Source of the DNA: Aulosira sp. ZfuVER01
GTDB lineage: Bacteria > Cyanobacteriota > Cyanobacteriia > Cyanobacteriales > Nostocaceae
DNA: 64,000 bases
Direction of reading: 5' to 3'
NCBI GenBank assembly: GCA_034530615.2
Contig: JAVRCV020000068.1
Span: forward strand, 64,001 to 128,000
Shown: positions 24,365-33,570 of the stretch, one piece after another
Position numbering within the stretch: position 1 is the stretch's first letter
How the letters are laid out: every line of letters begins with the position of its first letter
Position numbers and translations under genes: made by a program
The notes under the pieces: generated by a model
What the model saw: the letters and a program-made list of their open reading frames with translations, nothing else
Database searches by the model: none
Told to the model about the DNA's origin: nothing

Positions 24365-26371
24365 TCAGTTATGATGAAAATGTTTTTGTAACATTACCAG
24401 CCAGGCTTGAATAGCAGATTTTAATCTTGCTCTTTCAGTTTCTTTAATACCTTGAGGATCGAAGCGATCGCGGTAATGCAGTTCAACTAGCGATGTCAAA
24501 TCAGCAATTAAATCTGAGCTAGGTAATTCTTCTTCCAGTCTCTTGATCCAGTTTTTTAAAGACTCTGAAGGATGACGGCTTAAACCTAACTCTTGTAACC
24601 TTTTTTCAATTAAATAAAATTCATAATCTCTTTTATTTACATCAGATTTTGCAACTTGTTTAGTTAATATTTGTTTCGTAGATAAACGGCGAACTTGATT
24701 CTTAGAATTAAACTTCCACAACCGCAGAAATATTAATGGCAAAATCAGCCACCATCCATATTTAAATAGATTGCTAACTAAACTAGAACGTAACCAGCCT
24801 GAGAGTTTGAAACTAAAAAACGACCATAAATCAGAGATAAATGCTAATTTAGAAGCATTTGCATTCTCAATACTTGTCCAATCAGCAGGTGTGGTGTCAA
24901 AAGCTTGCCATCTACCATTTATATATGCCAATGTCCAAGCATGAGCATGGCGGCTACGAACTATGTATTGGTTCTCTAATTGGCTAAATTCGTGAACCGA
25001 ATACCCTACAGCATAACGCGCTGGTATACCCGCCGCCCGTAAAAGCAGTGTGGTTGCAGTGGCAAAATATTCACAGTGTCCAGCGCGAGTTTTCAATAAA
25101 AATGTTGATAAAGGTGTTGACTGATTGTTTTTACCTGTAAGTTTCAAAGAATAACGAAAATTTTTAATCAAAAAGCTATCCACACGTTCTAAAATTGCTT
25201 GGGGCGATTTTCCTGTAATATCTAGTTGCCTAATAATTTGGTTTACTGCTTCTCTTTCTGATTTGGCTATTTGCAGATCGTCTTCTGTTGGTGGGCTATC
25301 CAAAGAAAGACTTTTATTAAATAAGATTCGGTAAGCGATCGCATCAGTTTTTCCCTCTACTTTCACCGTACCATATTTATTTTTCTCCATTTGGCTGACT
25401 GGTAATTCTTCAATTTCAAATGTTCCGTCAGCTAGCCTTAACAAGCCTTTACCTTGATTAAGGGTTGCAGAAATCGTAAGTTTTGAGCTATTGCCTGAGT
25501 TATTGCCTAAACGCCAACTCTTACCATTAATCTCAGGTTGTACAGGAGTAAAAGTAGAATTTGATGCCACCCAAAAAGCAGATTTATATTTATCATAAGT
25601 TGCTTCTTTTAGCAGCCCGGGAGCAACTTTTTGACTATCAGCAGCAACTCGAAAAATAATCTCATTTGACTGTTTTAATGTTCCAATCTCACCGATACTA
25701 GTTTGCTTTGTTGTTGAGTCTGTTAGTTGTCCAATACTGTTATTATTGCTTAACCATGCAACAACCGTATCTTCTAACTTCTGTTGTAGATGATATACAC
25801 CTATTTGTCCTATAAATCCCATAATTCCAGCAAGCAGAATGAGACTCAGCCAAATACCAGGTGAAAATCGTTGCGATCGGATATACCAAAAGGCAATACT
25901 TGTCAGTAAAAACATCCCGATATAAAAAGATATATCCCTAGTATTAGCGACTCCAGCAGATAAAATACAGAGAGCAAAATAGGGATAACCTAAACTAATA
26001 ATGTAGCTGTTTGATTCTGCTTTAATGAGATTTTTTAATGATACAAAAAGTGTGCGAATATCAATACTTTCATTTACAGAGTATGTTTGAGCAGCCAGCA
26101 GGGGAAAAAATACTAATGGAAACCACTGCAACAGAGTATAAACTAAGTAAATTGAGCGTTGAGTAGTTAAAAGAGAAACAAATACAATAATCAGAATCAT
26201 CAAACACAGATTAGCAATGCGTCGGAAATCATCAGGGGAGAAATCCCAACGCGAGTTAATCAAGCGATATCCTGATAAAATCGCAGCCATTGGTATGGCA
26301 AAAATCCACATTCCTGTCTGCCAACCCCAAAAGATTAAAGCAGCACTCAGGAGAAGCACTGGCGCTTTCAT
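24365..26371 (-). CDS. membrane transglutaminase-like protein
   Basis: GHCEYFA, HAHAW, FDTTP catalytic triad motifs; multiple TM segments. Confidence 0.9.
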   Translation of the reverse strand: MKAPVLLLSAALIFWGWQTGMWIFAIPMAAILSGYRLINSRWDFSPDDFRRIANLCLMILIIVFVSLLTTQRSIYLVYTLLQWFPLVFFPLLAAQTYSVNESIDIRTLFVSLKNLIKAESNSYIISLGYPYFALCILSAGVANTRDISFYIGMFLLTSIAFWYIRSQRFSPGIWLSLILLAGIMGFIGQIGVYHLQQKLEDTVVAWLSNNNSIGQLTDSTTKQTSIGEIGTLKQSNEIIFRVAADSQKVAPGLLKEATYDKYKSAFWVASNSTFTPVQPEINGKSWRLGNNSGNSSKLTISATLNQGKGLLRLADGTFEIEELPVSQMEKNKYGTVKVEGKTDAIAYRILFNKSLSLDSPPTEDDLQIAKSEREAVNQIIRQLDITGKSPQAILERVDSFLIKNFRYSLKLTGKNNQSTPLSTFLLKTRAGHCEYFATATTLLLRAAGIPARYAVGYSVHEFSQLENQYIVRSRHAHAWTLAYINGRWQAFDTTPADWTSIENANASKLAFISDLWSFFSFKLSGWLRSSLVSNLFKYGWWLILPLIFLRLWKFNSKNQVRRLSTKQILTKQVAKSDVNKRDYEFYLIEKRLQELGLSRHPSESLKNWIKRLEEELPSSDLIADLTSLVELHYRDRFDPQGIKETERARLKSAIQAWLVMLQKHFHHN

Positions 26372-27717
26372 ATATGCATTAGTTCCTCTTGTATTTTTCC
26401 CAACTTCAAAAAGTGTAATTTTGTTATTTGATCGTTCATATAATCTGAATCAAACTTATCTAATTTACCTTCCTTATCTGTAACGATCAAAACTAAAGTA
26501 TGGATACCCATACTCTTGAGATAATTAACTAATCTTTTCCTATCTTCGTCCCAACAAAGAAATATACATATACAGCCACTCAACAAAGATAGTTTCTCCA
26601 GCACTACTGGAATAATAGAATCAAAAGATTTATCTCGACAGGCAACAACAGATGCGAGAATTTCTAGCATTTTGTCAGTATGGCTCAGTCCTCTGCCAAA
26701 GGTAAAACAATAAGCTTCATTACCAACAAACATCAAATCTAATAATGATTCTTGGGTTTGAACTTCACAAGCTAATGAAGCCGCAATTGATATTGCTTCT
26801 TCTAAAATTTCGCTATAATTCACGCTTTGAAATGTATCTAAAATCAATGCGTGTCGAACAAAAAACTCATCTTGTTCTTCTTTGACAATTGGCTTTCCAA
26901 CTTTTGCCCAGCTTTTCCAGTGAATTTTTCGCAGCGAATCTCCCAGACGATAATCGCGTAAAGACCTAAATTCCTCTGAATCACCTACAGAAGAGGCTAA
27001 CGCCACACCACCAGATTGATGTTTCTTGACACCTGGAAGTTGAACTGGTGGCAGTTGATATAACTTAGGTAAAATCAATAAAGATTGGGGTAAAGAAATA
27101 CTTTTACACGCTTTAAAAAGTCCAAAAGGATCGGGTCTAGCTACTGTCATACCCGTAATCCGAATAATACCTCTTTGAGTAGGTATGATTTCACCAATAA
27201 CTTCAGTTTTGCTATTTGGTACAAGGGGAGGTAAATCTATTGGTAAAGCGTTACCACATTGTTTGCGAGAAATTAACCACAGCCAACGATTGTATCCCAA
27301 AGAGCGAACAAATGAATTATGCCGAACTTTTCTATTTTCAAATGTTTCTATGAAATCCTTAAAACTTGGGCGAGGGTCAGCAAAATTTTCAAATATTTTT
27401 AGTCCTTTTTGGATTTTGTCGCTTTTGTTATGAATTACAATTTTGTACTTCAGTTTTACACCCACAGTTGCGAATTGGGGTAGATTGCGATTAGCACTAA
27501 AATGATAGCGAAACAGCAAGCTTGAAACTACAGATATGATGAGAATAGATAGCAGAAAAGTGACTATCTGATAGTTCATGCTTTCATTACTAGAACCAGT
27601 TAAAGCGGCTGCGATCGCTATTACTGAAACAACCACGCCACTAACAGTAACTCGTCTGCTTAGTTTGCGGTGAATACCATAACTGAAATAGAAAAGACGA
27701 TAGATAAAAAGTTTCAT
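26368..27717 (-). CDS. DUF58 protein
   Basis: EFRSLRDYRLGDSLRKIHWK motif; in MoxR operon. Confidence 0.9.
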   Translation of the reverse strand: MKLFIYRLFYFSYGIHRKLSRRVTVSGVVVSVIAIAAALTGSSNESMNYQIVTFLLSILIISVVSSLLFRYHFSANRNLPQFATVGVKLKYKIVIHNKSDKIQKGLKIFENFADPRPSFKDFIETFENRKVRHNSFVRSLGYNRWLWLISRKQCGNALPIDLPPLVPNSKTEVIGEIIPTQRGIIRITGMTVARPDPFGLFKACKSISLPQSLLILPKLYQLPPVQLPGVKKHQSGGVALASSVGDSEEFRSLRDYRLGDSLRKIHWKSWAKVGKPIVKEEQDEFFVRHALILDTFQSVNYSEILEEAISIAASLACEVQTQESLLDLMFVGNEAYCFTFGRGLSHTDKMLEILASVVACRDKSFDSIIPVVLEKLSLLSGCICIFLCWDEDRKRLVNYLKSMGIHTLVLIVTDKEGKLDKFDSDYMNDQITKLHFLKLGKIQEELMHI

Positions 27718-27732
27718 CTTTCACGTTTGCTA

Positions 27733-28695
27733 TCAAACTGGAACAGGAACAGATTTGAGGATATCTTCAACAACACTGGTGGCGGTTCTACCAGAGAAAC
27801 GCGCTTGCGGTTCCATAACAAGGCGATGAGCAATTACAGATACCGCAAGTTCTTGGATATGTTCTGGCGTGACAAATTCATAGCCATCAAACAAGGCTAA
27901 TGCTTGAGCAATCTTCATTAAAGCAATAGATGCTCTGGGGCTAGCTCCTAATTGCACGCCTTGGGCAGAACGAGTAGCATTGACAATATCTACAAGGTAG
28001 GTTTTCAATTCCTGAGAAATACGAATTTGTCTGACCTGCCGTTTTAAAGTAATGATGTCCTGCAAGTCAATGCAAGGTTGAATTATATCAATAGGGTGCT
28101 GTTGGATTTGGTCTGAAAGCAGGTTAACCTCGTCTTCCGGCGATATGTATCCCAAACTAAACTGAAGTGCAAAGCGATCCATTTGGGCTTCTGGAAGAGG
28201 ATAAGTACCACGGGATTCCACTGGGTTCTGAGTGGCGATGACAAAAAACGGGTCTTTTAGTTTTCGCAAATTCCCATCAATGCTGATTTGAAACTCTGCC
28301 ATAGCTTCTAGTAGTGCAGATTGAGTACGCGGTGAAGCCCGGTTAATCTCGTCAGCCAAAACAATATGCGCGAAAATCGGGCCTTCGTGGAAATGAAAGG
28401 TACGTTCGTTTGGGTCAAGCATCGAAATACCCAAGATATCCGAAGGCAAAAGATCTGGTGTAAATTGAATGCGCTTGAAACTTACATCTACAGAGTATGC
28501 TAGGGCTTTCGCTAAGGTGGTTTTGCCAGTTCCGGGATAATCTTCTAGGAGTACGTGTCCCCCACTAGCAAAGGCTGACAGCAATTTTCTGATTGCTGCT
28601 GATTGCCCTTTTATAACCTTTTGAATGTTGTTAAAAATTCTTTGATAAATTTCTTTGCTGGGCAAATCATGAGGCTTCGGGTAAGAATTCTCCAT
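27733..28695 (-). CDS. MoxR-family AAA+ ATPase
   Basis: PGTGKT, RIQFTPDLLPSD, DEINRA, ATQNP, YPLPEAQMDRF. Confidence 0.95.
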   Translation of the reverse strand: MENSYPKPHDLPSKEIYQRIFNNIQKVIKGQSAAIRKLLSAFASGGHVLLEDYPGTGKTTLAKALAYSVDVSFKRIQFTPDLLPSDILGISMLDPNERTFHFHEGPIFAHIVLADEINRASPRTQSALLEAMAEFQISIDGNLRKLKDPFFVIATQNPVESRGTYPLPEAQMDRFALQFSLGYISPEDEVNLLSDQIQQHPIDIIQPCIDLQDIITLKRQVRQIRISQELKTYLVDIVNATRSAQGVQLGASPRASIALMKIAQALALFDGYEFVTPEHIQELAVSVIAHRLVMEPQARFSGRTATSVVEDILKSVPVPV

Positions 28696-30297: not shown

Positions 30298-31389
30298 TTA
30301 CTGGCATTCTTCTGGTGATGGTGTTTTTGGCAAAGATACAGTGGTGTTTTGTAAATTCTCTCGCAATAGCACTTTCAGTCGTTGATTATCTTCAGCAGCG
30401 ATCGTTTCACCGTAGTGATGTTGCTGAAATAATTGGCAATAACGGTTTTGTTTAGCACAAATTAAACAACCGTAGGCATTATTACCATTTGCACCGCATA
30501 GCCGATGTCCCATCACCGGGCCCAAGGAAATATTTTGCTCACTTGCAACTGTATTCAGGATGGAACGTAGCCGTGCTTCAAACTCCATTGATAAAAACAG
30601 CTTACTTCCTGGTTTTGTACGATCCCATTGCGGCACAATTAATCCCTGTTTTAACAAACTCTCTTCAATTTCAGCTGACATAACAATGTTAGAGAGAATT
30701 ACATGGTGGGTAACATTAGGCAAAAGTTTCCTTGCCAATTGCCACATTAAAGTCTCATCAAACCACTGTTCAACTAGAGGACGAAGATACCAACAACAGG
30801 GAATGCCAAGGTTGACTAAATCTTGTAGCAGTTGTACTCGTCCCTGAATAGAGGCTTGCTCATATCCTGGTTTTAATGGTGGTAGACTAACAAAAACTGT
30901 GACTCGTAGGGAATTCGGTTGAGCTAAAGTAGCTTTGAGGCGCTCTAGAAATGATTTACCAGGGTGGACTTTGGTTGTAATGTAGACCATATTCGCTGCT
31001 TGACGGTCAATCAGTGCATTCAAAATTGACAGTACACGTTCTCGATGCGCTGGGATAAAGGGATCGGAGTAGTCGCATAGAGAAATTGGAAAGCCATTTT
31101 GTCCCTCTGGAGTAGCAAAAATGCAGTCTAACAACCGATCGAGCAAGTCAGATGGAGCTAAAGTATTCTCAAAATTTTCTGGATGATGATGCCAGTCACG
31201 GTCTTGATGGCAGACACAATAAGCACATTCAACTGGACAACGGTTCAGGGTATTGGGTAGAAATGGATTCAGACTGAAGTATTTAACTGCACGTTCTCGA
31301 TCGGGAATTCCCAGTACAGGAAAGCCATGTAGCATATACTGACTCCCCTGTAATGAAACTTCAGACAGAGTAGATTGATAATTTGCCAT
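30298..31389 (-). CDS. radical SAM superfamily protein
   Basis: CPVECAYC (CxxxCxxC), SDPF, ITTK; additional C-terminal Cys cluster. Confidence 0.75.
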   Translation of the reverse strand: MANYQSTLSEVSLQGSQYMLHGFPVLGIPDRERAVKYFSLNPFLPNTLNRCPVECAYCVCHQDRDWHHHPENFENTLAPSDLLDRLLDCIFATPEGQNGFPISLCDYSDPFIPAHRERVLSILNALIDRQAANMVYITTKVHPGKSFLERLKATLAQPNSLRVTVFVSLPPLKPGYEQASIQGRVQLLQDLVNLGIPCCWYLRPLVEQWFDETLMWQLARKLLPNVTHHVILSNIVMSAEIEESLLKQGLIVPQWDRTKPGSKLFLSMEFEARLRSILNTVASEQNISLGPVMGHRLCGANGNNAYGCLICAKQNRYCQLFQQHHYGETIAAEDNQRLKVLLRENLQNTTVSLPKTPSPEECQ

Positions 31390-31608: not shown

Positions 31609-32247
31609 TTACAAATATAAGGATTGAACAGCCAGATCCTTTAAGGTAATGGTAAAGTTACGCTGCTCTTGTGTAGCAATGAATGCGATAGTTGCCTCAC
31701 ACGCCACAGCAACAGTTAACATCACCAAATTTCGCGCTAGAGGATAATCACAGACATCATCATTGACATCAGAAGGAACGCGATAAACATCATTCCAAAT
31801 TACTTCTGCATAATCGGCTGCTAGTCCAACATGAAGGCAGGGAATTTTTGAACGATCGGCATAATCTTTCACTGCTTGACGTGACAAGCTGTTGTCAAAA
31901 ACATCAATAATTAACTGGCTATCTTGAAGTAGTTGATCTGCATTTGCTGATGTCAACTCCTTTGTTTTGGCATCAACTTTAGTACCAATTGCTCGGTATA
32001 AATTATTTGCTAGGATTTTCGCCTTAATTGCTCCAACATCGGAACGGTAGTAAGGCTGGGTAGAAAGGTTACGTTCCTCAATGCGATCGCGATCGATTAC
32101 CGTAAGTTTATCAAAACCAGACCGAGCCAAGTTTTCTGCAATGTTAGCTCCTAACGCTCCAGCCCCACAAATGGTTATAGGATAATTCTTGAGCTTTGCC
32201 ATCACAGCATTGCTGCGGTAAAGCTGTTCGTGAAAAAAAATACTCAT
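31609..32247 (-). CDS. ThiF/MoeB/E1-like adenylyltransferase
   Basis: GAGALG, DRDRIEERNL, DVFDN; ATG 32247 lies 5 nt after the stop of the upstream gene. Confidence 0.9.
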   Translation of the reverse strand: MSIFFHEQLYRSNAVMAKLKNYPITICGAGALGANIAENLARSGFDKLTVIDRDRIEERNLSTQPYYRSDVGAIKAKILANNLYRAIGTKVDAKTKELTSANADQLLQDSQLIIDVFDNSLSRQAVKDYADRSKIPCLHVGLAADYAEVIWNDVYRVPSDVNDDVCDYPLARNLVMLTVAVACEATIAFIATQEQRNFTITLKDLAVQSLYL

Positions 32248-32252
32248 TGTCC

Positions 32253-33086
32253 TTACCACTCTTGTTGTTCCATCACAGCCACTAAAGATTGCAAATCAAA
32301 ATCGCGATCGCGTCCACTCAAGCAAATCCCAGAACTAATTACAGTCAAATCAGATTTAGCGATCGCACTAGTGTGGCGAACACCATCAGCCGTTCTCCAA
32401 TCCACTGTCCAGTAATCACCGCGATCGTGAAATTGGCGTAATTCACCGCCACCCATTCGCAATGCTTTTCTTAGCCGTTTTTCATCCTGTTGCGGTTGTG
32501 CAAATCCCTCAATCCGCTGAGTTGCTAATTCATACAATGTCCGGATTTCTGGAGTAATCCCTTTGAACTGTAATTCCTCAGCAGGAGTCAGTTGCTTAAC
32601 AGCAGATTGCAGAGTTTCCACAATTGCTGGATCGGTACGGCGATCGATTTCCTCAAACCAGCAGGATTGTCCATTCCAACGAGCGATAACTTGCTCAAAA
32701 ACAACACCCTCAGTTACTAGATGTACTGCGATCGGTTTGACTACCTTCAACCGTTGACGCATATCTACTTCATTCACAGGATATGCTAACCAAGTTTGTC
32801 CTCGCAGTTGGTGTGCTAATCTCAGCCGTATTTGGGGAAAGTGTTGCAAGTATTCTGCAATTTGGGGTAAGTCTGCTTCTTCCACAACTGTTGCTGTCTT
32901 CGTATCGACTGGCTGAAAGATACCCCAACCTTCAAATTGATTATGCTTTGGCGTAAAGGTGTAAACCATCCCAGCTACTCGTGTGCGAACTCGTCCACCT
33001 TTGACACAAGGGGCGATAAATTGAGTTGCACACAACTGTGCTTCTGCACTAGCAATTTGGTTGATTAGCTTACGGATGTCAGTCAT
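32253..33086 (-). CDS. hypothetical protein, C-terminal GICL motif (possibly E2-like)
   Basis: 277 aa ORF adjacent to ThiF. Confidence 0.8.
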   Translation of the reverse strand: MTDIRKLINQIASAEAQLCATQFIAPCVKGGRVRTRVAGMVYTFTPKHNQFEGWGIFQPVDTKTATVVEEADLPQIAEYLQHFPQIRLRLAHQLRGQTWLAYPVNEVDMRQRLKVVKPIAVHLVTEGVVFEQVIARWNGQSCWFEEIDRRTDPAIVETLQSAVKQLTPAEELQFKGITPEIRTLYELATQRIEGFAQPQQDEKRLRKALRMGGGELRQFHDRGDYWTVDWRTADGVRHTSAIAKSDLTVISSGICLSGRDRDFDLQSLVAVMEQQEW

Positions 33087-33158: not shown

Positions 33159-33366
33159 CCCGCGTGCAAGTTGGTGGAGCATTGCGTGTTCTCAGTTACT
33201 AGGGGGACTCCGCTGGTGAGTTGTTACACACTCTTTCAAAGATGGCTACTTTTAAGCCCATTTTCCAGGTTCTTCGCACTCCCCGTTCACACACGCCCAC
33301 TGTATTTGACAGTGTTACTTTTCCTCTCGTACTAGTATGTAGGCTCCAAGAGTTAGGGCACGCAGG
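33159..33366 (-). ncRNA. scaffold RNA unit 1 with 23S sarcin-ricin loop and H42-44 (GTPase centre) mimic
   Basis: Scaffold ends GCGUGCCCUAAC and AACUUGCACGC; AGUACGAGAGGA at 33333-33322; GGCUUAAAAGUAGCCAUCUUUGAAAGAGUGUGUAACAACUCAC within 33268-33213. Confidence 0.85.
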
Positions 33367-33570
33367 ATATTTATATAATACAACATACTACAAAAAATAA
33401 ATACCAGAGATTAAAAGAGATATGTTGCAGTAGTGCGATCACTGCCGCTTCATATACCTACTTCATTTCGCTCATCAATATCAACTCCTTAAGTTGAGCG
33501 ATCATCCGAATTAGAAAACATAACTTTATTTATGCTACAACAAGTTACATATGTATTAATGAATTAGGTT

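Follow-up and report, generated by a model that had tools for sequence, protein, structure and literature searches.

A Y-RNA-like element beside a Ro60-like gene in Aulosira sp. ZfuVER01 imitates the sarcin-ricin loop and the GTPase-associated centre of 23S rRNA

Results

Organization of the locus and architecture of unit 1

The stretch of DNA analysed here, referred to as the window, comprised 64,000 nucleotides (nt) of Aulosira sp. ZfuVER01 (assembly GCA_034530615.2, contig JAVRCV020000068.1, positions 64,001-128,000 of the forward strand); genome-wide counts were made on the complete assembly (8.03 Mb, 83 contigs). The window contained a gene for a divergent Ro60-like protein and, on the same strand, an array of structured units with common terminal arms (Table 1). 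The unit located 1.6 kb downstream of the Ro-like gene, unit 1, is the subject of this work. It measured 208 nt including its closing stems (read from 33367 down to 33160) and, judging from its sequence and predicted fold, most likely encodes a small RNA of about 205 nt that is discrete and structured. Its internal part, or cargo, resembled two regions of 23S rRNA within a single unit: the sarcin-ricin loop (SRL) and helices 42, 43 and 44 (H42-44), the L10/L11-binding domain of the GTPase-associated centre.

Table 1. Features of the Ro-like locus, in positions of the window. A2 is the alignment of diverse homologous units described in the text; counts out of 80 refer to loci fetched around relatives of the Ro-like protein.
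Feature	Position	Strand	Remarks
Unit 1, complete Y-RNA-like unit (closing stems and rRNA-mimic cargo)	33160..33367	-	120 distinct homologues; 94.7% of pair cells paired and 22/56 pairs compensatory in A2
Outer closing stem P1, 5' strand	33358..33365	-	pairs with 33160-33167; 4/8 pairs compensatory in A2
Outer closing stem P1, 3' strand	33160..33167	-	part of the common 3' arm CAACUUGCACGC
Scaffold stem P2, 5' strand	33343..33348	-	pairs with 33175-33180; 2/6 pairs compensatory
SRL-like hairpin	33316..33337	-	4-bp stem around the 12-mer AGUACGAGAGGA, 12-mer at 33322-33333
Hairpin P4 (CACUGU-loop-ACAGUG)	33298..33314	-	5/6 pairs compensatory in A2; no rRNA counterpart found
Stem P5, 5' strand, enclosing the H42-44 mimic	33291..33296	-	pairs with 33184-33189; 4/6 pairs compensatory
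H42-H43-H44 (GTPase-associated-centre) mimic	33202..33284	-	lower H42-like stem 33276-33284 with 33202-33208; 56-nt core 33213-33268
Unit A, same arms, tRNA-Lys(UUU)-like cargo	38782..38907	-	51 bits on the tRNA model
Unit B, same arms, cargo like 23S H69 3' strand/H70-71	38272..38452	-	23/26 identical to same-genus 23S rRNA 1842-1867
Unit C, same arms, tRNA-like (T-arm) cargo	38111..38250	-	weak YrlA match, 23.1 bits, E 0.083 (gathering score 69)
Unit D, same arms, tRNA-Leu(UAA)-like cargo	37125..37253	-	49 bits on the tRNA model
Mini unit E, same arms, cargo of about 19 nt	36497..36564	-	directly upstream of the Ro-like gene; repeat families D2, D16
Divergent Ro60-like protein (TROVE and vWA), 476 amino acids	35003..36433	-	ATG at 36433; 80/80 loci by design of the locus set
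L7/L12 paralog, 130 amino acids	36694..37086	-	TIGR00855 at 105 bits; 28/80 loci
p277	32253..33086	-	directly downstream of unit 1; 72/80 loci; 763 cluster representatives
ThiF/E1-like adenylyltransferase	31609..32259	-	overlaps the end of p277; PF00899 1.7e-27; PADLOC E1-E2 60 bits; 69/80 loci
p69a, 69 amino acids, ending Tyr-Gly	38461..38670	-	76/80 loci; C-terminal YG in 74/76
p239, conserved basic protein	37259..37978	-	67/80 loci; 522 homologues
455-amino-acid open reading frame in the variable gap	33571-34938	+	1/80 loci; no conserved part of the locus
p363	30298-31389		0/80 loci; no conserved part of the locus

Inside P1 and P2, the elements followed each other in 5' to 3' order as SRL hairpin, hairpin P4 and stem P5, the last enclosing the H42-H43-H44 look-alike. 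The 5' strand of P1 ran into a conserved motif of the 5' arm, G-N-C-C-Y-A-A, located at 33353-33359 (minus strand). A preliminary description of this region, made from the letters alone, had quoted a series of strings, all of which were found on the minus strand of 33182-33340; the two helices it had proposed, the CACUGU/ACAGUG hairpin (P4) and the GCGUGU/ACACGC stem (P5), were predicted by both the minimum free energy (MFE) fold and RNAalifold and co-varied among homologues. The helices of unit 1 as a whole were recovered by the MFE fold of the single sequence and by RNAalifold (59 homologues), with the exception of the SRL stem, which was drawn by the MFE fold only; RNAalifold put a 3-bp helix at this place, which was replaced by hand with the SRL stem. 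Positions 31-36 of the unit could instead pair with 166-171 (UACUAG/CUAGUA), but this option was dropped, because 166-167 changed without compensation. The sigma-70 promoter scan gave no sites, and the sole terminator-like site in the terminator scan was the P4 hairpin on the opposite strand, none being found between unit 1 and p277 on the coding strand.

Resemblance to 23S rRNA

The 23S rRNA of Aulosira sp. ZfuVER01 itself was not present in the assembly (whole-genome scan, 8.03 Mb) and, because the host gene was unassembled, a 23S rRNA of the same genus was used as the reference. The alignment to 23S rRNA that the preliminary description had called for was made with this sequence, and both the SRL and H42-44 matched. 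The SRL 12-mer AGUACGAGAGGA occurred only once in the assembly, in unit 1, and together with its 5' U was identical to positions 2580-2592 of the same-genus 23S rRNA (13/13), as expected from the earlier claim of an exact universal 12-nt SRL. In the H43-44 part, 36 of 45 positions were identical to 1082-1126 of the reference (local alignment score of 45, versus 21.8 ± 2.5 and a maximum of 29 in 200 shuffles), and in the whole H42-44 domain 57 of 86, with one gap.

The same resemblance was found with covariance models. In a 231-nt Rfam scan, 33213-33268 (minus strand) matched positions 1179-1234 of the large-subunit rRNA (LSU) model with 39.9 bits (E 1.4e-10), and the pairs of the top of H42, of H43 and of H44 were in register in this alignment, all of them formed except two marked as non-standard. 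The score was under the gathering score of the whole family because the unit carries a fragment. The match was not recovered by the whole-window Rfam scan (gathering thresholds), the 801-nt scan (E <= 10) or the whole-genome scan, and blastn-short of the whole window against the rRNA operon recovered the H44 part alone. Homologous non-rRNA sites in three same-genus genomes scored 47-52 bits on the bacterial LSU model. The model match and the 57/86 identity bear out the likeness to H42-44 noted previously, and the exchange in the closing stem that had been noted with it was also real: CUAG/CUAG in the same-genus 23S rRNA, CUGG/CCAG in the unit, and CCGG/UCGG or CCGA/UCGG in other lineages. The SRL and H42-44, which jointly make up the site where translation factors dock on the 50S subunit, were about 1,450 nt apart in the same-genus 23S rRNA, versus 93-97 nt (SRL to H44 motif) in the units; the wide separation stated in the preliminary description was correct, but its figure of about 1600 nt was not that of this rRNA.

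Conservation and covariation

Homologous units, 120 of them distinct, were obtained from genomes and metagenomes. Two alignments were used: A1, with 59 intact units chosen by their arms and H44 only (the SRL was not used), and A2, with 32 diverse units. The 20 genome units from a scan of 401 genomes and the metagenome units were found by a pattern fixing the SRL and part of H44, so that the invariance of these parts in pattern-found units is a consequence of the design. In A1 the SRL 12-mer was invariant (59/59), 98.8% of the pair cells were paired and six pairs were compensatory. The number of compensatory pairs in A2 (22 of 56) was reached by none of 500 shuffles, and slid controls gave 2-6. 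Compensatory changes were present in every helix class of A2 except H44, itself nearly invariant, and both the top of H42 and H43 showed covariation. The SRL closing stem (four pairs) was 96.8% paired in A2, with one compensatory pair; pair 34-49 of this stem occurred as U-A, U-G or G-C (G-C in 3/120 units). Pair 76-180 of P5 was G-C in 61 and U-A in 43 of the 120 units. Most H44 sequences also fitted a simple Watson-Crick register, and only three C-G variants favoured the rRNA register.

Nucleotides for tertiary contacts were conserved or changed together. Unit positions 120, 140 and 147, which we take to be base triple 1072-(1092-1099) of this domain in rRNA, switched jointly (U/U/A in 108 units, C/C/G in 3 and intermediates in 9). 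For the other positions that presumably make tertiary contacts (the base triples and the long-range U-A pair of the 58-nt domain), the equivalents were G/G/C in 120/120, U/A in 117/120 and A143 in 120/120 units. The presumed equivalent of E. coli A1067 was variable (A in 105, G in 13 and C in 2 units).

The spacing from SRL to H44 was constant across units, and the motifs were conserved among homologues, given the SRL in 59/59 units of A1 and the covariation across the 120. The covariation, the invariant loop nucleotides and the covariance-model match exclude both chance and rRNA debris, which had been considered unlikely from the start. Unit 1 is a structured RNA under purifying selection, and the mimicry of the SRL and of the L10/L11-binding H42-44 within one conserved structured small RNA is strongly supported.

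Some metagenome units (L113, L114, L117 and L129) were strongly divergent and GC-rich and retained the arms, SRL, hairpin and H42-44; the C/C/G state of the triple was carried by L114, L117 and L129. A second type of copy was seen in L020 (about 10041), L048 (about 11187), L058 (about 3236) and L073 (about 9769). It kept the 5' arm, the SRL position and H42-44, had a different 3' end without the common arm, and its SRL 12-mer was mutated in 3 of the 4 cases.

Distribution and linkage to the Ro-like gene

We collected 80 genomic loci that surround relatives of the Ro-like protein. An SRL with the H44 motif 93-97 nt behind it, both on the strand of the Ro-like gene, was present in 57 of them; four others had truncated or variant copies and 19 had none, two of these 19 with a remnant 5' arm. 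The pattern scan of 401 cyanobacterial genomes found SRL-gap-H44 in 25 (10 of 155 genera, five families), and the reversed control pattern in none. The unit was linked to the Ro-like gene: this gene was present in 46 of the 401 genomes, among them all 25 with the unit, and no unit was found in the 355 Ro-less genomes, though no formal statistic is attached to these counts because the sampled genomes are related. A metagenome scan added 39 unit loci, and the same kind of pattern scan gave no matches in the viral contigs of IMG/VR.

Sixteen units from other cyanobacterial families (L087-L099 and L109-L111; f5, f9, f17 and f25) did not adjoin p277/ThiF. Their neighbours in L087, L089, L094, L110 and L111 were genes for microbial PARG, NADAR, Macro, Tpt1/KptA, RNase T-like and HNH proteins, enzymes that act in the metabolism of ADP-ribose and of RNA ends.

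The core of the locus measured about 7.5 kb, and the flanks outside it were not conserved between genomes. Depending on the genome, unit 1 was separated from the Ro-like gene by about 0.1 to 3.4 kb, a variable gap that looks like an insertion hot-spot.

Three Logan contigs (172, 167 and 153 nt long), each from an RNA library of a different study, consisted of the unit alone (relatives 90-99% identical); one was at depth 168 and none reached into the flanks. Because contigs show neither strand nor ends, they do no more than hint at a stable, discrete RNA. The sequencing-run search found no run with half of the words of unit 1.

Sister units with the same arms

The arms of unit 1 recurred on at least five further minus-strand units of the window, near the Ro-like gene, six units being recognized in all (units 1 and A to E in Table 1). 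Unit B was the second rRNA-mimic RNA of the array, and its cargo aligned to the same-genus 23S rRNA with a score of 37 (shuffles 23.1 ± 2.2, maximum 29). The tRNA-Leu-like part of unit D, being only 75 nt long, was without the long variable arm of a real tRNA-Leu. Further tRNA-like pieces were seen upstream of unit A (38932-39084, minus strand), with matches to permuted tmRNA, tmRNA and mascRNA of 12-24 bits, all below gathering score.

Ro-like protein and other genes of the locus

The Ro-like protein matched the PDB TROVE-domain chains 9l5y/9kop (E 9e-5) over residues 25-394 (370 residues), had Pfam vWA matches at 286-391, and was assigned to phrog_850 (“RNA-binding protein”). It had 3,305 relatives, of which the best 120 listed were 81-97% identical; such conservation, across many cyanobacterial genera, suggests strong constraint or horizontal spread. 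The L7/L12 paralog shared 48% identity with a second rplL, located on contig C48. In the paralog a charged hinge replaced the usual Ala/Gly-rich one, and its C-terminal domain was well conserved. It was uncorrelated with unit 1, which was present in 19 of the 28 loci with the paralog vs. 38 of the 52 without.

p277 had no Pfam, NCBIfam, PHROG or PADLOC family, no PDB sequence relative and no usable Atlas match. Its AlphaFold2 model (predicted local distance difference test, pLDDT, 93) was beta-rich with an OB-like domain; the only matches were OB-like (Z 5-6; VIA), and Foldseek gave none at E <= 1e-3. An E2-like fold, suspected from the adjacent E1, was not seen. p277 contained an invariant Cys within an AGICLSG motif. 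p69a is a candidate ubiquitin-like or sulfur-carrier partner of the E1; with p277 and the ThiF/E1-like protein it may make up a module for ubiquitin-like conjugation or sulfur transfer that is linked to the Ro locus in Nostocaceae.

p239 matched no family; its model (pLDDT 72) was weakly winged-helix-like in its best match (Z 5.5), its listed homologues were unnamed or hypothetical save two with the source label “Transposase”, and its Atlas look-alikes were unnamed clusters, 56% of them viral. No likeness to L10 or L11 was found in the models of p239 or p277, both tests being weak. RtcB, RtcA and RtcR were not seen in the window. A pair encoding a MoxR AAA+ ATPase and a DUF58 protein (26368-28695, minus strand), about 3 kb beyond ThiF, is probably unrelated to the Ro locus; MoxR was present in only 2 of the 80 loci.

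Discussion

Comparison with known systems

Bacterial Y RNAs are described in Chen et al. 2014 (PMC4201824) as encoded beside rsr, 80-130 nt long, with a terminal stem and a tRNA-like module, possibly several per locus, with a 5'-strand motif GNCGAA that resembles the vertebrate GGUCCGA, and they are portrayed as tethers and gates. Unit 1 shares with these RNAs (YrlA/Yrn1; PMC4201824) an adjacent Ro60-type gene, 5' and 3' ends that pair into a long stem whose 5' strand bears a short conserved purine/pyrimidine motif, and a module imitating an RNA of the translation apparatus, its sister units carrying tRNA-like modules; the occurrence of several RNAs per locus is also a likeness, the array of at least six units in the window being counted as a difference. 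The terminal stems P1 and P2 were supported by covariation, and the arm motif was similar to, not identical with, GNCGAA. Further differences are a cargo of rRNA type (SRL and H42-44) rather than tRNA, and a Ro-like partner too divergent for Pfam TROVE. Unit 1 was filed as Y-like only, that is, as an RNA that would work like a Y RNA and whose class membership is not established, because the YrlA model fails, the size is larger and the cargo is rRNA, despite the common neighbourhood and stem and the similar motif.

The rsr-yrlBA-rtcBA operons, as presented in PMC7790460 and PMC7824862, likewise combine a Ro-type protein and structured mimic RNAs with RNA-repair functions, and a TROVE protein with a tRNA-like partner is portrayed in the second as an RNA-repair platform (PMC7824862); the conserved partners here were p277, the ThiF-like E1, p69a and p239. 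With the GTPase-associated centre and SRL (H95) of 23S rRNA itself, unit 1 has in common a colinear 56-nt core, an H42-like stem, the invariant 12-mer and the tertiary positions, whereas in the unit these elements stand close together, are bridged by a new hairpin and stem, lie outside rRNA operons and have diverged by 20-34% from the same-genus 23S rRNA. The leaders of ribosomal-protein genes (L10, L1/L11) imitate rRNA binding sites and, like unit 1, are off-ribosome RNAs imitating a ribosomal-protein site of 23S rRNA. These leaders are located in the 5' untranslated region of ribosomal-protein operons and imitate the protein site alone, whereas unit 1 has the SRL and Y-like arms and no ribosomal-protein gene downstream: the genes 3' of it are p277 and ThiF, and the L12 paralog is instead preceded by the tRNA-Leu-like unit D. 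Full-text literature searches (supplements aside) on Y RNA, Ro60 or TROVE with SRL, GTPase-centre, rRNA-mimic, Nostoc or phage-defence turned up no such RNA, and as far as searched the cargo is of an undescribed type for a Y-like RNA.

Unit 1 as a putative target mimic

The reading that we favour, and whose chances we consider evenly balanced when it is taken as a whole, is that of a Y-RNA-like RNA held by the Ro-like protein and displaying the factor-binding centre as a bait or sentinel in Ro-centred RNA-damage surveillance or repair. The common closing stem with its Ro-motif-like sequence would be the handle gripped by the adjacent Ro60-like TROVE/vWA protein. The cargo, on one three-way platform, reproduces the SRL and the complete L10/L11-binding H42-44 with secondary and tertiary structure kept, and may be recognised off the ribosome by proteins specific for the factor-binding site of the 50S subunit. 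The proposed ligands would be in the first place ribotoxins or RNA-modifying enzymes, and in the second translational GTPases and stalk proteins. Unit 1 would thus act as a target mimic in a system whose sister units would present tRNA anticodon arms and the H69-71 region. Together with the SRL, these are classic targets of RNA-damaging enzymes.

A bait or sentinel is favoured because the cargo panel corresponds to classic RNA-damage targets, because the unit accompanies RNA-repair and ADP-ribose enzymes in other families, and because the L12 paralog is dispensable; since this paralog is uncorrelated with unit 1, a bait appears no less likely than a functional miniature GTPase centre. The joining of the SRL to the stalk base would suit enzymes reaching the SRL via the stalk, as known for eukaryotic ribosome-inactivating proteins, though we know of no such stalk-guided access in bacteria. 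The miniature factor-binding-centre mimic proposed in the preliminary description holds for the mimicry of SRL and H42-44 in sequence and structure, but the Y-RNA-like scaffold, the Ro60-like neighbour and the panel of mimics had been missed.

Several observations weigh against the bait or sentinel reading. To our knowledge no bacterial toxin requires the H42-44 domain, and protection by a bait must require high abundance. Some families had 7-57 kb between the unit and the Ro gene, or the two on different contigs; unit 1, folded as a single sequence, had an energy that was not unusual (z-score only -1.3), and the unit-only RNA contigs derive from relatives and reveal no strand or ends. Pfam TROVE gave no match to the Ro-like protein even at E 10, the PDB TROVE chain being the only TROVE support; PADLOC saw no defence protein here beyond the generic E1 similarity; and no Rfam YrlA match was found on unit 1 at E <= 10. 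The motif G-N-C-C-Y-A-A differs from the published Ro motif GNCGAA, and the length of about 208 nt from the 80-130 nt of Y RNAs, both as given in PMC4201824.

Alternative explanations

The main rival to a bait is a tether or adaptor, in which the cargo would dock host ligands (L11, L10 with L7/L12 or the paralog, EF-G, EF-Tu or other GTPases) to the Ro-like protein, in the way a Y RNA links Ro and PNPase. Examples of its purpose would be the regulation or storage of these ligands, or the steering of Ro-dependent turnover of rRNA or ribosomes under stress. The SRL and H42-44 are joined as a GTPase-docking site on the ribosome requires, the nucleotides for rRNA tertiary and protein contacts are invariant, the locus encodes an L7/L12 paralog with a well-conserved C-terminal domain, and PMC4201824 gives Y RNAs the roles of tether and gate. 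This paralog was nevertheless found in only 28 of the 80 loci and was not enriched with the unit (19/28 vs. 38/52), a paralog of L10 or L11 was not found (in weak tests p239 and p277 were unlike them), the neighbours in other families are ADP-ribose and RNA-repair enzymes and not translation proteins, and titration of essential stalk proteins would be costly; we regard a tether as rather unlikely. A cis-regulatory leader, whose H42-44 mimic would bind a protein and thereby govern how p277-ThiF downstream is translated or transcribed, would follow the established principle of rRNA mimicry by ribosomal-protein leaders and would fit the position of the Nostocaceae unit, which in almost every locus with both lies on the p277 strand and 75-350 nt upstream of that gene, present in 54 of the 70 p277 loci and without a terminator found in between on the coding strand. 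We consider it very improbable: p277-ThiF occurs without the unit in the other 16 of the 70, the 16 units of other families do not adjoin these genes, the unit has a closing stem of its own in common with units ahead of unrelated genes, the SRL plays no part in any known leader, the downstream genes do not encode ribosomal proteins (the neighbours in other families being PARG, NADAR, Tpt1 and Macro) and, as a weak indication, the RNA-library contigs end at the borders of the unit.

rRNA fragments do occur in genomes and this assembly is without its own 23S rRNA, so that non-functional rRNA-derived debris or an assembly chimera was also considered. The covariation and conservation data refute this explanation, to which we leave practically no chance: the architecture was kept in 120 distinct genome and metagenome units with compensatory changes everywhere except H44, the SRL-H44 spacing was constant at 93-97 nt, the unit was merely 66-80% identical to the same-genus 23S rRNA, and degenerate second copies lose the SRL, which intact units never do.

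Implications

Y RNAs with tRNA-like modules are known, and their role in bacteria is still unclear. An rRNA-mimic unit beside tRNA and H69-71 mimics suggests a general principle, namely that Ro-type proteins hold mimics of translation RNAs. A more far-reaching version, which we put forward as possible though doubtful, is an RNA-based guard: the Ro-like protein would hold a panel of Y-like RNAs, each showing a hot-spot of translation (SRL and stalk base; H69-71; tRNA anticodon arms), attackers (ribotoxins, RNA ADP-ribosyltransferases or other invaders) would hit these baits, and the damage would be sensed or repaired by the Ro/vWA protein with its partners (in Nostocaceae the Ubl-E1-p277 module, Ubl standing for ubiquitin-like; elsewhere PARG/NADAR/Macro/Tpt1). 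If true, this guard would amount to a system of integrated-decoy immunity or repair built from RNA, and a bait role of unit 1 would make it the first RNA counterpart of the protein “integrated decoys” of immunity. Unit 1 also provides a small natural construct of about 160 nt, validated by evolution, in which the SRL and the GTPase-associated centre are joined; it may be used to study off-ribosome sufficiency for factor binding, GTPase activation and toxin recognition, and to ask what bacterial Ro proteins survey.

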